Positions 8,189-43,470 of a stretch of 45,775 nucleotides of DNA are shown one piece after another; positions within the stretch are counted from its first letter, which is position 1, and each line of letters starts with the position of its first letter. The stretch comes from a virus (Duplodnaviria > Heunggongvirae > Uroviricota > Caudoviricetes): IMG/VR virus record IMGVR_UViG_2718218398_000003. One strand, 5' to 3'. Position numbers and translations under genes: made by a program. The notes beneath the pieces are model-generated. The model saw nothing but the letters and a program-made list of their open reading frames with translations, did no database searches and was not told the origin of the DNA.

Positions 8189-8881
8189 TTAATTGTGTCG
8201 CTTAAGGGTTTGTGACTGGCTGATTAAGACCTTTCCAAAGACCATAAACCGGTGTTCATTTTCGCTGGTAATTCCCCATTCACGGTAAATCTGGTTATCA
8301 GAAATCACCAGTAGTTTGTCAGGTATCATTTGCAGTCGTTTGACATAAATTTTATCATCAAAACCAAATACATAGATACCATCTCCATCAAACTGATTGA
8401 TACTGACATCAACGAAGATGAGATCTCCTGGCTCAATGGTTGGACACATACTGTCCCCACGAACGTTGATAACTTTAATGTGATTGGCTGGCCGTCCGCC
8501 AAACATCGATACAGCATTATCAGTTCTGTATTCAATGGCATGAATCACATCAATGACATCACCGCCCTGGATAAGGCCATTTCCCGCACTGGCACTGACA
8601 TCCAGCATTTCAATACGGAATACATCCTTCACCTGCGCAACATCCTCACTAATACTGTTTTTACATACAGTATTACTTTTGACGTCTGAGGTAAAGAGAT
8701 CTGCAATATCAACACCTAAGCTCCTGGCAATATTACTCAGGGCTTGTTCAGTGAATTGTTTCTGCTTACCTGTTTCCAGGCGTGAGATATTCGCCGCATC
8801 CACTCCTATTGCTTCAGCGAGATCGGCGATTTTCATGTTCTTCGCCTGGCGAAGTTGTCTGACTCGGTTTCCTATGTTCAT
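8189..8881 (-). CDS. cI: cI-type phage repressor (HTH-XRE N-domain plus S24 LexA-like autopeptidase C-domain)
   Basis: 230 aa; N-terminal HTH (...IADLAEAIGVDAANISRLETG...); C-terminal ...GDSMCPTI...YVKRL... carries the Ser/Lys dyad of S24 peptidases; divergent from the cro-like gene. Confidence 0.9.
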   Translation of the reverse strand: MNIGNRVRQLRQAKNMKIADLAEAIGVDAANISRLETGKQKQFTEQALSNIARSLGVDIADLFTSDVKSNTVCKNSISEDVAQVKDVFRIEMLDVSASAGNGLIQGGDVIDVIHAIEYRTDNAVSMFGGRPANHIKVINVRGDSMCPTIEPGDLIFVDVSINQFDGDGIYVFGFDDKIYVKRLQMIPDKLLVISDNQIYREWGITSENEHRFMVFGKVLISQSQTLKRHN

Positions 8882-8978: not shown

Positions 8979-9239
8979 ATGCAATCACCATTACGGAATG
9001 TGCGTAAGGCGCACGGATTTACTTTGCAGCATGTTGCTGCTGGCGTTCAGGTCAATCCAGCGACGCTGAGTCGTATTGAAAGACTGGAACAAGTTCCATC
9101 TATCGATCTTGCAGAACGTCTGGCCAATTTTTTTAAGGGTGAAATCAGCGAAATGCAGATTCTTTATCCGGCACGTTTTCAATCTAGCCAAAACCAGAAT
9201 GGGTTTAAACCACAGGAACAGGAGGTAAGCCGTGGGTAA
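8979..9239 (+). CDS. cro: Cro-like HTH regulator
   Basis: 86 aa with HTH (...FTLQHVAAGVQVNPATLSRIERLEQ...), divergent from cI. Confidence 0.8.
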   Translation: MQSPLRNVRKAHGFTLQHVAAGVQVNPATLSRIERLEQVPSIDLAERLANFFKGEISEMQILYPARFQSSQNQNGFKPQEQEVSRG

Positions 9240-9783
9240 TCATCACTGGAAAGTGGAAAAACAGCCTGAGTGGTACGTGAAAGCTGTCAGAAAAACTATC
9301 GCAAAGTTGCCGGGTGGTTACGCTGAAGCAGCTGACTGGCTGGATGTAACAGAGAACGCATTATTTAACCGCCTTCGTGCCGATGGCGATCAGATTTTCC
9401 CGCTGGGATGGGCAATGATTTTGCAACGTGCTGGTGGAACTCACTTCATTGCTGACGCTGTGGCGCAGTCTGCAAATGGCGTCTTTGTGTCTCTTCCTGA
9501 CGTCGAGGATGTGGACAACGCCGATATTAACCAGCGCCTGCTGGAAGTCATTGAACAGATCGGCAGTTATTCAAAACAGATTCGTTCAGCAATTGAAGAC
9601 GGTGTAGTGGAACCGAATGAGAAGACAGCAATTAACGACGAGCTGTACCTCTCAATTTCGAAGCTGCAGGAGCATGCAGCACTGGTCTACAAAATTTTTT
9701 GCATTTCAGAAAGTAATGACGCCCGCGAGTGTGCAGCTCCGGGCGCCGTGGCGTGTCGTGACTGTGGAGAAACTAACGCATGA
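9232..9783 (+). CDS. phage regulatory protein (possibly YdaT-like)
   Basis: GTG start with GGAGG 6 nt upstream, overlapping the cro stop; 183 aa; position after cro as in ydaS/ydaT-type pairs; family assignment is tentative. Confidence 0.55.
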
Positions 9784-10118
9784 ACAGTTTAACAACACAC
9801 TACCGTCGCTCGCAACTGATTGCGCTTCCTGTACCGGGTGGAAAAGCGAAGGTGGAGTATTGCTATGCAGTAAATGTACTAGGTGACAGGGAAATTGTAA
9901 CCCACAGCTTTGCAGAGTGGGCTGTGGGTGATTTCAACCGGCAGAAGGAGACAGTCCTTTGCGACAAGTTAACCGCTGGTTCAAAGATCACTACGGAGTG
10001 CCCGTCAGAGTCATTCGTTGGGAGCCGGAAACACAACGGGTTATCTACCTCCGCGAAGGCTATGAGCATGAGTGCTTCAGCCCGCTCGAACAGTTTCGTC
10101 GTAAATTCAGGGAAGTAG
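9780..10118 (+). CDS. hypothetical protein, probably frameshifted (see findings)
   Basis: ATG overlaps the previous stop (ATGA). The N-terminal 60 aa look protein-like but the C-terminal half is Ser-rich low complexity, while the -1 frame from about 9932 to 10138 reads as a plausible protein and overlaps the O start. Confidence 0.35.
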
Positions 10119-10127
10119 AGGTCGGTC

Positions 10128-11099
10128 ATGAGCACTAAATTAACCGGCTATGTATGGGATGGTTGCGCTGCATCAGGCATGAAATTATCCAGCGTGGCAA
10201 TTATGGCCCGCCTGGCTGATTTCAGTAATGACGAAGGTGTGTGCTGGCCATCAATTGAAACCATTGCCCGTCAGATTGGCGCGGGGATGAGTACCGTCAG
10301 AACGGCTATCGCACGGCTGGAAGCAGAAGGCTGGTTAACGCGTAAGGCGCGTCGCCAGGGTAACCGCAATGCGTCGAATGTTTATCAGCTTAACGTTGCG
10401 AAGCTTCAGGCAGCGGCATTTTCTCAACTGTCAGATTCTGACCCGTCAAAATCTGACGCATCAAAATCTGACGCATCAAAATCTGACGCATCAAAATCTG
10501 ACCCGTCAAAATTTGATGCGTCGAAATCTGGCAAAAAAGCGGGTTTTCACCCGTCAGAATCTGGCGGGGATCCGTCAGTAAAATCAAAACATGATCCGTC
10601 AGATAAAAAACCTTCTCGTCCGGACGCTTCGCAACCGGACACGCAGACGGCTGAACAGGATTTTTTAACTCGCCATCCTGATGCGGTTGTATTCAGCCCT
10701 AAAAAGCGCCAGTGGGGGACGCAGGATGATTTGACCTGCGCACAGTGGCTCTGGAAAAAAATCATCGCCCTGTACGAGCAGGCTGCCGAATGTGACGGCG
10801 AGGTGGTTCGTCCCAAAGAACCGAACTGGACAGCCTGGGCAAACGAAATTCGCCTGATGTGTGTGCAGGATGGTCGTACTCACAAACAAATCTGCGAGAT
10901 GTACAGCCGCGTCAGCCGCGATCCGTTCTGGTGCCGTAACGTGCTCAGCCCGTCGAAGCTGCGGGAAAAATGGGATGAGCTTTCTCTGCGCTTATCGCCG
11001 TCCGTCAGCACGTACACAGAAAAACGCGAAGACCCGTACTTCAAAGCCAGTTACGACAATGTGGACTACAGCCAGATCCCGGCAGGATTCAGGGGGTGA
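10128..11099 (+). CDS. replication initiator (lambda O-like; N-terminal HTH, iteron-containing)
   Basis: 323 aa; N-terminal winged-HTH-like region; internal SKSDASKSDASKSDASKSD repeat encoded by 15-bp DNA iterons, as in lambda O / ori. Confidence 0.85.
   Translation: MSTKLTGYVWDGCAASGMKLSSVAIMARLADFSNDEGVCWPSIETIARQIGAGMSTVRTAIARLEAEGWLTRKARRQGNRNASNVYQLNVAKLQAAAFSQLSDSDPSKSDASKSDASKSDASKSDPSKFDASKSGKKAGFHPSESGGDPSVKSKHDPSDKKPSRPDASQPDTQTAEQDFLTRHPDAVVFSPKKRQWGTQDDLTCAQWLWKKIIALYEQAAECDGEVVRPKEPNWTAWANEIRLMCVQDGRTHKQICEMYSRVSRDPFWCRNVLSPSKLREKWDELSLRLSPSVSTYTEKREDPYFKASYDNVDYSQIPAGFRG
10431..10535. repeat. replication origin iterons: 7 tandem 15-bp repeats (consensus TCAAAATCTGACGCA)
   Basis: Three perfect copies at 10446-10490 flanked by four degenerate copies; further CCGTCAG-containing degenerate repeats to about 10610; all inside the initiator gene. 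Confidence 0.85.
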
Positions 11100-11590: not shown

Positions 11591-12243
11591 TGAGTAATAA
11601 ATATTGCCAGGAGCTGGTGGAACTGCGGAACAAACCAGCCCATGAACTGAAGGAAGTGGGCGATCAGTGGCGCACGCCGGACAACATTTTCTGGGGAATT
11701 AACACCCTGTTTGGTCCGTTTGTTCTGGATCTGTTCACTGACGGTGATAACGCCAAATGTGCTGCGTATTACACGGCGGAAGACAACGCGCTGGCGCATG
11801 ACTGGTCAGAACGCCTTGCGGAGCTTAAAGGTGCTGCCTTTGGAAATCCCCCATACAGCCGCGCCAGTCAGCATGAGGGGCAATACATCACCGGCATGCG
11901 TTACATCATGAAGCATGCCAGTGCCATGCGTGATAAGGGCGGGCGCTATGTTTTCCTGATCAAAGCTGCCACCAGCGAAGTGTGGTGGCCGGAAGATGCA
12001 GATCATATTGCTTTTATTCGCGGGCGTATTGGTTTTGAACTGCCTGCCTGGTTTATCCCGAAGGATGAGAAGCAGGTGCCGACAGGCGCTTTCTTCGCTG
12101 GTGCTATTGCTGTTTTCGACAAGACCTGGAAGGGACCGGCAATCAGCTACATCGGGCGCGATGAACTTGAGGCATGTGGTGAGGCGTTTCTGGCGCAGGT
12201 TCGCCTGCAGGCGGAAAAGCTGGTCAGGGAGATGGCGGCATGA
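11590..12243 (+). CDS. phage Dam-type DNA N6-adenine methyltransferase
   Basis: Catalytic motif IV NPPY (...AAFGNPPYSRA...); ATG overlaps the upstream stop (TAATG); 217 aa. Confidence 0.8.
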   Translation: MSNKYCQELVELRNKPAHELKEVGDQWRTPDNIFWGINTLFGPFVLDLFTDGDNAKCAAYYTAEDNALAHDWSERLAELKGAAFGNPPYSRASQHEGQYITGMRYIMKHASAMRDKGGRYVFLIKAATSEVWWPEDADHIAFIRGRIGFELPAWFIPKDEKQVPTGAFFAGAIAVFDKTWKGPAISYIGRDELEACGEAFLAQVRLQAEKLVREMAA

Positions 12244-12566
12244 CGACGTTAACTCAATGCCAGCAGCAGGTGCTGGATATGCTGATTTCTTATCAGAAAG
12301 AGCGTGGCTTCCCGCCAACCAATCAGGAGGTGGCAACCATGCTGGGATACCGTTCGGTGAATGCAGCGGTGGAGCATCTTCGCGCACTGGAGAAAAAAGG
12401 CGTCATCACGATAAAGCGTGGTGTGGCCCGGGGGATCACGCTTCATACCGCGGTGAAGGACGACGACAGCAAGGCGGTCGGGATTATCCGCTCACTGCTT
12501 GCCGGTGAGGAAAACGCAAGGCTGCGTGCAACTCACTGGTTACATGAGAGAGGCCTGAAAGTATGA
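12240..12566 (+). CDS. LexA-type N-terminal DNA-binding-domain protein
   Basis: ...QQVLDMLISYQKERGFPPTNQEVATMLGYRSVNAAVEHLRALEKKGVI... matches the LexA winged-HTH DNA-binding domain pattern; no peptidase domain. Confidence 0.65.
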   Translation: MTTLTQCQQQVLDMLISYQKERGFPPTNQEVATMLGYRSVNAAVEHLRALEKKGVITIKRGVARGITLHTAVKDDDSKAVGIIRSLLAGEENARLRATHWLHERGLKV

Positions 12567-42886: not shown

Positions 42887-43470
42887 TGGCATTCAGAATG
42901 AGTGAACAAGCACGGACCATAAAAATTTATAATCTGCTGTCCGGAACTAATGAATTTATTGGTGAAGGTGATGCATATATTCCGCCTCATACAGGTCTGC
43001 CAGCAAACAGTACCGACATTGCACCGCCAGATATTCCAGCTGGCTTCGTGGCTGTTTTCAACAGTGATGAGTTATCGTGGCATCTCGTTGAAGATCATCG
43101 GGGTAAAACGGTTTATGACGTGGCTTCCGGCGACGCGTTATTTATTTCTGAACTCGGTCCGTTACCGGAAAATGTCACCTGGTTATCCCCGGAAGGGGAG
43201 TTTCAGAAGTGGAACGGCACAGCCTGGGTGAAAGATGCAGAAGCAGAAAAACTGTTCCGGATCCGGGAGGCGGAAGAAACAAAAAACAGCCTGATGCAGG
43301 CAGCGAATGAGCATATTGCGCCACTTCAGGATGCTGTAGATCTGGAAATCGCAACGGAGGAAGAAAACTCGTTGCTGGAAGCCTGGAAAAAGTATCGGGT
43401 GTTGCTGAACCGTGTTGATACATCAGTAGCACCGGATATTGAGTGGCCTGCTGTCCCTGTTATGGAGTAA
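42886..43470 (+). CDS. tfa: tail fibre assembly protein (Tfa)
   Basis: 194 aa; [54 protein letters not shown]... classic Tfa signature; start overlaps the stf stop. Confidence 0.9.

Follow-up and report, generated by a model that had tools for sequence, protein, structure and literature searches.

We report that the ymfM locus of an e14/SfII-type lambdoid prophage of Escherichia coli, carried on a 45,775-nucleotide stretch of DNA (IMG/VR virus record IMGVR_UViG_2718218398_000003; the whole of this stretch is called the window below), is best read as two independently translated genes that overlap out of frame in the early-right operon, a reading to which we assign a probability of about 0.82. 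Translation of ymfM would start at an ATG coupled to the stop of ymfL, produce an N-terminal domain of about 59 amino acids, and then run on through 52 further codons to end 9 nucleotides before the ATG of an O-like replication gene. Ribosomes would start separately at a Shine-Dalgarno (SD) sequence and the TTG at 9959, in the -1 frame, and make a 59-amino-acid protein of the DUF4222 family whose stop overlaps the O start. The pair is ordinary-looking and previously unremarked; what is new is the reading of a known gene, ymfM.

A DUF4222 gene nested in ymfM

The original prediction had described the open reading frame (ORF) at 9780 as starting with a coupled ATG, reading as protein for about 60 codons and then becoming Ser-rich, and this description holds: the ATG overlaps the ymfL stop as ATGA at 9780-9783, and Ser makes up 5% of residues 1-60 and 23% of residues 61-112 (S+T+A+G 48%). 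The -1 frame is open from 9932, directly after a TGA at 9929-9931. It contains no start codon through 9932-9958, the first being the TTG at 9959-9961, and its TAA at 10136-10138 lies beyond the ATG of the O-like gene at 10128, giving an overlap of 11 nucleotides; that the frame overlaps the O start had been foreseen. The credible protein that had been noticed in this frame is a member of the Pfam family DUF4222 (PF13973), which it matches over profile positions 3-53 of 53 at 68 bits, above the gathering threshold of 27 (E = 5e-19).

The start of this gene is a conserved feature. In an alignment of 25 diverse proteins the DUF4222 N-terminus falls at one Met. Most relatives use ATG at this position and some GTG, TTG being the codon of the E. 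coli e14 type; an SD-like, purine-rich stretch lies 5' of the start in most relatives, and in several the -1 frame has a stop 0-2 codons ahead of the start. Within the overlap, the DUF4222 frame exhibits the strongest purifying selection of the segment, with ratios of nonsynonymous to synonymous substitution rates (dN/dS) of 0.03-0.28, where dS is at or near saturation in most pairs. The AlphaFold2 (AF2) model has a predicted local distance difference test score (pLDDT) of 82 and an SH3/Tudor-like fold; sequence searches of the PDB with the products of both frames returned nothing meaningful. These comparisons support DUF4222 as a real, independently started gene, the second of the two options that had been offered for the -1 frame.

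That only the 112-amino-acid YmfM is translated, and that the DUF4222 match is an unexpressed relic, would suit the curated K-12 annotation, which has ymfM alone, and the weak TTG start of the e14 type. We consider the chance of this practically negligible, given the purifying selection with saturated dS, the conserved start, the confident fold, and the existence in the family of a functional member, RgdR.

Selection on the ymfM frame across the overlap

The comparison covered 38 distinct loci, comprising the window, phage records, 31 loci from a scan of one genome per species (Escherichia, Shigella, Atlantibacter, Citrobacter, Buttiauxella, Enterobacter, Kosakonia, Raoultella, Leclercia, Silvania, Pantoea, Mixta and others), and 3 remote loci whose DUF4222 is ~45-65% identical. 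Phages SfV and ST64B bring the number of overlapped loci to 40, from ~25 species and with four divergent types of N-terminal domain (N-domain). The ymfM frame is free of stops through DUF4222 in all 38 distinct loci and in SfV and ST64B (40/40). Counted from the conserved start, which precedes the first ATG in two loci, its length is ~108-117 codons. Its stop falls at one and the same aligned DUF4222 codon in 33 of 37 distinct sequences; the others end 1-3 codons further on. When the sequences were resampled synonymously with the codon usage of the flanking genes, the probability of an open frame had a median of 0.05 (range 0.013-0.14), against 38/38 observed.

The manner in which stops are avoided can be seen codon by codon. 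At the four DUF4222 columns where a purine in the third position would create a stop in the ymfM frame, none of 147 codons ends in a purine and all 25 Fitch events are exchanges between T and C, whereas at five comparable safe columns 49 of 181 codons end in a purine and 22 of 32 events are exchanges between purine and pyrimidine (Fisher test on the events on the tree, p = 2.6e-8). The ymfM stop itself is formed from rare GTA, ATA or TTA codons, column 56 being NTA in 33/37 sequences while the DUF4222 residue varies among V, I and L. This stop lies 9 nucleotides before the replication-gene ATG in 31 of 36 loci (6, 6, 3, 3 and -11 in the others); the position of the DUF4222 stop varies from +4 to +92 past the downstream ATG. 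As controls we used 8 DUF4222 genes without a ymfM-type run-on before them; 7 of these have stops in the frame equivalent to ymfM, compared with 0 of the 40 overlapped loci (p = 1e-7); the seven come from Serratia, Morganella, Citrobacter phiNP, Elizabethkingia, CharmingMan and the loci L055 and L057.

Selection is seen in both frames across the overlap, as in an overlapping gene pair. Judging from these substitution patterns, the run-on is clearly selected only for staying open and for the place of its stop, and DUF4222 at the amino-acid level. That the 112-codon frame, too, is evidently kept by selection, through avoidance of stops and a fixed stop position, had not been foreseen in the original prediction, and because both frames are selected, both ORFs are judged to be real.

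The other sense frame and two of the antisense frames are full of stops. The antisense frame in register with DUF4222 contains an ORF of 90 codons (9863-10135, minus strand) that is annotated as a coding sequence (CDS) in MK416017 and ON470608. We set this candidate gene aside, as its ends are not conserved and openness in this frame is expected by chance in 48-64%; it is probably a by-product and an annotation artefact.

The YmfM N-domain and its tail

In the part of the ymfM frame that precedes the DUF4222 start, dN/dS is 0.15-0.49, with values of ~1 or more for the other frames in almost all comparisons. Within the overlap, the ymfM frame has values of 0.7-6.6, the same as the third frame, and no amino-acid constraint is seen there. 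Protein sequence appears to matter in the N-terminal ~59 codons and in the whole of DUF4222, and the sequence of the Ser-rich tail is, as far as substitution rates tell, unconstrained. The original prediction had named the pattern that would speak for the 112-amino-acid product, with its C-terminal half conserved and the -1 frame peptide not; the homologues exhibit the opposite.

The 112-amino-acid product matches no Pfam or NCBIfam model, and its AF2 model is poor overall (pLDDT 47). Residues 13-64 give weak strand and helix signals; the tail contains no ordered part, has a pLDDT <50 and is predicted to be disordered. An exhaustive search of 1.84 billion proteins with the N-domain alone found 47 representatives, a narrow family, in which standalone homologues of 59-68 amino acids are encoded directly after the CP76 gene.

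Residues ~11-50 of YmfM (LPVPGG..V.YCYAV) weakly match a unit that is repeated 3-16 times in long, secreted-looking proteins (P0222, P0213, P0230-P0232 and P0236, of which P0222 shows LPVGGGDVTYCYAV; P0233 is another multi-repeat protein examined for this weak match). These matches are probably a shared beta-strand motif (LPVGGG..VTYCYAV) and not homology.

Frameshifting as an explanation of the two frames

The first option of the original prediction, one gene with a frameshift near 9940-9975, fails on the same loci. If a frameshift mutation or an error in sequencing had disrupted an ancestral gene that joined the YmfM N-terminus to DUF4222, the frame would be expected to change where protein-like sequence becomes low complexity, as it does, and in-frame fusion proteins exist (P0031, P0050, P0057, P0063 and P0087). 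These fusions, however, have five differing junctions and belong to small clusters (1-14 members, each with a single contig; Logan/ENA assemblies supplied four and NCBI one), compared with clusters of up to 1295 members for the 112-amino-acid form. The identical two-frame layout is kept in all 40 overlapped loci, with their four divergent N-domain types, and several relatives carry the stop 0-2 codons before the DUF4222 start that was mentioned above. In L055 and L057 the N-domain and DUF4222 are separate, so that they are two genes there and not one, which we regard as decisive against a frameshift. Between K-12 and the window there is no indel in 9780-10138, and the segment 9700-10200 has a 100% identical match in one other complete E. 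coli chromosome, matches of at least 99% identity in 376 records, and query coverage of at least 80% in 2008 records. Population identity and conserved layout rule out sequencing error and frameshift mutation, and a broken ancestral gene is so improbable as hardly to count.

Programmed -1 frameshifting in the manner of lambda G/GT or dnaX, which would fuse the N-domain to DUF4222 and give two products from one start, we consider highly improbable. As in the genes that use it (lambda G/GT, dnaX, IS3 transposases), an upstream ORF is followed in its -1 frame by a conserved domain. In the window, the 9 codons of the -1 frame ahead of the TTG are open, and 7 relatives have a U_UUA_AAG heptamer at +21. 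Unlike the known frameshift genes, DUF4222 has its own conserved start, no conserved heptamer or stimulatory structure accompanies it, and the two parts occur separately elsewhere. A slippery X_XXY_YYZ heptamer is absent from the permissive interval of the window and of 26/38 loci, and none is conserved; most relatives have an SD-like stretch and an ATG, GTG or TTG at the conserved N-terminus of the domain; in L021, L037 and L041 the -1 frame is closed until 0-1 codon before the start; and near the site no RNA structure is conserved (median z -0.4). Neither of the marks of programmed frameshifting, a slippery heptamer and a domain that lacks its own start and is conserved as a fusion, was found. 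On comparative sequence evidence we reject frameshifting, whether mutational or programmed.

Why the run-on stays open

With the two genes accepted as the preferred reading, the run-on frame needs an explanation of its own. Ribosomes translating ymfL would enter ymfM through the ATGA overlap, cross the DUF4222 start out of frame and stop in the SD region of the replication gene, where termination would aid translation of that gene or prevent polarity. DUF4222 would be made at its own rate, and the TTG start probably makes this rate lower in the e14 type. We give about even odds to the view that the run-on is kept open mainly for this delivery of ribosomes to the SD and start of the replication gene (coupling or anti-polarity), with the tail peptide idle. 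The stop-start spacing is short and conserved, as coupling would have it (the 9-nucleotide gap in 31/36 loci). Translationally coupled phage early operons with ATGA-type overlaps offer a parallel: here, too, junctions overlap (cro-like/ymfL, ymfL/ymfM, DUF4222/O and O/next gene), and the ymfM stop lies inside the SD region of O. In contrast to those operons, the chain here appears to bypass the DUF4222 cistron by out-of-frame reading, and the dependence of O on ymfM is one that we infer.

Small genes with their own SD and start that are nested out of frame in a longer gene, both genes being translated, are known from lambda Rz/Rz1 and from phiX174, where E lies within D. The DUF4222 gene resembles these in having its own SD and start inside the other frame of a longer gene; the difference is that both peptides are functional in lambda and phiX174, whereas the long frame here shows only stop avoidance and a fixed stop.

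Two other explanations of the open frame were weighed. One is that the Ser/Thr-rich, disordered tail is needed for YmfM activity, by its length, its composition or as a degradation tag, which would compete with the coupling step only. The clone that causes filamentation (discussed below) expressed the full 112-codon ORF, as far as the parts of the paper considered here describe it, the S/T/A/G-rich composition is similar in all types, the O start lacks a stable structure that would need unwinding, and the frame continues in SfV and ST64B into a Phage_ASH domain, for which the tail can serve as a linker. On the other hand, no amino-acid constraint is detectable, the composition follows automatically from the conserved codons of DUF4222, a need at the protein level leaves the exact 9-nucleotide spacing from stop to start unexplained, and N-domain homologues exist without such a tail, so that we hold this explanation to be rather doubtful. 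The other sees the 112-codon ORF as extended by accident in its 3' half, which would be open by shared ancestry and have no selected role. The tail has the same dN/dS as the untranslated third frame and is predicted to be disordered, N-domain homologues elsewhere are proteins of 59-68 amino acids, and one lineage (L053) lost most of the tail by deletion, all of which an accident would allow. It is nonetheless very unlikely in view of the 25 independent synonymous events at risky codons, none to a purine, against 22/32 at safe codons, the formation of the stop by rare NTA codons although the residue changes among V, I and L, the fixed distance of the stop from the next ATG, and the quick gain of stops in that frame by standalone DUF4222 genes.

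Several points weigh against two translated genes with a coupling run-on. The TTG is weak as a start codon. Neither product has direct evidence of expression from this locus, and the literature searched yielded no paper on both ymfM and ribosome profiling. The loci are related and raw counts overstate their independence, which the event-level test and the controls address, the latter being only 8. The antisense frame in register with DUF4222 is open in 34/37 loci, more than the chance expectation given above. The amino-acid sequence of the tail evolves like a non-coding frame, so that its openness needs a cause other than protein sequence, and the AF2 model of the N-domain is also poor (pLDDT ~50-56). 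Around the O start, folding gave no stable mRNA structure whose unwinding could account for coupling (z = +1.0), and a disordered tail needed for its length or composition fits the data equally well.

In the window, a hairpin at 9944-9961 joins the SD of DUF4222 (GAAGGA) to UCCUUU, a stretch that reaches into the UUG start and covers its first two bases (71-nucleotide fold, z about -2). Such a hairpin could have made initiation at DUF4222 depend on translation of ymfM; it was dropped as a general mechanism, being confined to the e14 type and not conserved in relatives (median z -0.4, n = 32).

Relatives and origin of the layout

In L055 (1501-2564) and L057 (1013-2092), the gene order is CP76, YmfM N-domain, KilA-N/ANT, DUF4222 and replication gene, and in L056 (1501-2405) it is CP76, YmfM N-domain, KilA-N and replication gene. 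The arrangement in these three loci may represent the ancestral, non-overlapping layout. Most likely, the KilA-N/ANT gene between the two parts would then have been lost, and the N-domain gene would have run on through DUF4222; the reverse order of events, with the overlapped layout first, is also conceivable.

The lineages differ in what has become of the run-on. In orf37 of SfV (L044 1352-2188) and sb41 of ST64B (L045 1358-2515), the ymfM-type frame passes DUF4222 without the usual stop and continues into a Phage_ASH domain (E = 2e-18), which begins without an ATG, and in ST64B also into Phage_pRha; the DUF4222 of SfV has a GTG start (L044 1501-1680). This SfV-type read-through into Phage_ASH probably occurs also in many Shiga toxin (Stx) phages. 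The gene annotated as 'transcriptional regulator', 'antirepressor' or 'Rha' hides an unannotated DUF4222 gene. In Entomohabitans teleogrylli (L053 1501-1737), the core of DUF4222 has been removed by an in-frame deletion, and the ymfM frame (78 amino acids) still ends at the start of the replication gene. Like this variant, a Salmonella locus (L054 1501-1731) is degenerate, with a recombination or deletion junction directly after YmfM residue 55.

The only studied relative of the DUF4222 protein of the window is RgdR (ECs1581), encoded in the cryptic prophage CP-933C (OI-51) of enterohaemorrhagic E. coli (EHEC) O157; in the O157 Sakai strain rgdR is at L052 3720-4019. Both proteins belong to DUF4222 (RgdR, E = 2e-23) and are 43% identical over 49 residues, and both genes lie immediately upstream of a replication gene and overlap it, the primase gene ECs1582 in the case of RgdR. 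RgdR differs in its length of 99 amino acids, with N- and C-terminal extensions, against 59 in the window, in its location in a P4-like element, and in not being nested in a ymfM-type ORF. It acts as a regulator that activates LEE1/ler and represses motility, its DNA binding being weak and non-specific, and its RGD (Arg-Gly-Asp) tripeptide at residues 20-22 is important for activity (Flockhart et al. 2012, PMC3378721). The RGD motif is absent from the whole sequence of the 59-amino-acid protein of the window. Lambdoid phages, P4-like elements and phage EKP1 (L050; recorded host Elizabethkingia anophelis) have DUF4222 directly upstream of a replication gene, a position that hints at a replication-linked role.

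Genomic context and occurrence

The window contains the ymfL-ymfM-O segment of the e14 type, and the features of the locus are collected in Table 1. The YmfM of the window is the ortholog of K-12 b1148 (SfiC) in e14, the gene having the same place after ymfL and before the O-like gene and the same further neighbours (cI-like and cro-like), and the DUF4222 product is identical to its K-12 counterpart at 58/59 residues. Of 5426 complete E. coli genomes, 2646 carry the e14 ymfL-ymfM region, as do SfII, SfIV and other phages.

Table 1. Features of the ymfM/DUF4222 locus and its neighbours in the window
Feature	Coordinates	Strand	Remarks
cI-like S24 repressor	8189-8881	minus	
cro-like helix-turn-helix (HTH) gene	8979-9239		
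ymfL (CII-like; Phage_CP76 / NCBIfam YmfL)	9232..9783	+	NF041471, E = 4e-49; stop overlaps ymfM ATG (ATGA)
ymfM ORF, 112 codons	9780..10118	+	K-12 b1148 109/112 identical; phrog_1170, E = 1e-69
ymfM N-terminal domain, ~59 codons, non-overlapped part	9780..9958	+	purifying selection in the ymfM frame; standalone homologues of 59-68 amino acids
SD-like AAGGAG for the nested gene	9945..9950	+	8 nucleotides 5' of TTG 9959
Nested DUF4222 gene, 59 codons, TTG start	9959..10138	+	RgdR family; predicted SH3/Tudor-like beta-barrel
Dual-coding overlap	9959..10115	+	DUF4222 codons 1-52 = YmfM residues 61-112, one base out of register
ymfM stop TAG	10116..10118	+	NTA codon 53 of DUF4222 plus next base; position conserved
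O-like replication initiator (HTH_36; phrog_391)	10128..11099	+	ATG in the ymfM frame; overlapped by the DUF4222 stop

Downstream of the O-like gene follow PerC-like, Dam, LexA-DNA-binding, RusA and KilA-N genes. Inside the O-like gene, a 15-nucleotide unit (TCTGACGCATCAAAA) is present in 6.3 tandem copies at 10437-10530; these are probably origin iterons and appear in the protein as a DASKS/DPSKS repeat. A gene at 12240-12566 (+), lying between those for the Dam methylase and RusA, encodes a 108-amino-acid protein that consists of a LexA DNA-binding domain alone, without the S24 peptidase. Rfam, tRNA, and promoter and terminator scans gave nothing relevant at the ymfM/DUF4222 locus; the sole Rfam match in the window is IS009 (RF02111, 209 bits) at 43229-43427 (+).

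Annotation and the SfiC phenotype

The two genes have been annotated one at a time. The curated K-12 record has ymfM alone, as 'cell division inhibitor YmfM', while the NCBI annotation (PGAP/RefSeq) has the DUF4222 CDS alone (WP_001250272.1), also in the genome that is identical to the window, and phage records call ymfM, DUF4222 or the antisense ORF. PGAP/RefSeq calls DUF4222 alone in thousands of genomes; the comparative evidence indicates that both sense ORFs are real and that the antisense ORF is probably an artefact.

The phenotype of ymfM was obtained with DNA that holds both genes. According to the first section of the results, the discussion and the methods of Ansari et al. (bioRxiv 10.1101/2020.11.19.390815), the K-12 ymfM ORF was cloned in pBAD24, expression of the clone blocks Z-ring formation and causes filamentation, and ymfM was deleted by recombineering; these sections describe no frame-specific mutant. 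As the cloning is described there, the insert includes the native SD, the TTG and ~53/59 codons of DUF4222, that is, its whole conserved core, and the deletion presumably removes both genes. Both cistrons are also inside the shotgun clones of Burke 2013 and Mediati 2018. Since the clones carry both, the published ymfM experiments, as far as these sections describe them, did not separate YmfM from the DUF4222 product.

It is unlikely, in our estimate, that the SfiC division block is caused wholly or in part by the nested 59-amino-acid protein of the DUF4222/RgdR family, with the 3' half of ymfM acting as a 'translated spacer'. If this were true, the 3' half of ymfM would be kept to ferry ribosomes across an embedded gene to the start of the replication gene, and not for its peptide. 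The question of SfiC dates from 1983, and within the DNA that gives the phenotype lies almost the whole coding sequence of another protein, one far better conserved; three single-base changes, each silent in one frame and disruptive in the other, can separate the two products. More generally, the run-on of ymfM would be a natural example of selection on the openness of a frame and on its end-point without constraint on its amino acids, which matters for the recognition of overlapping genes and of translational coupling in phage genomes.

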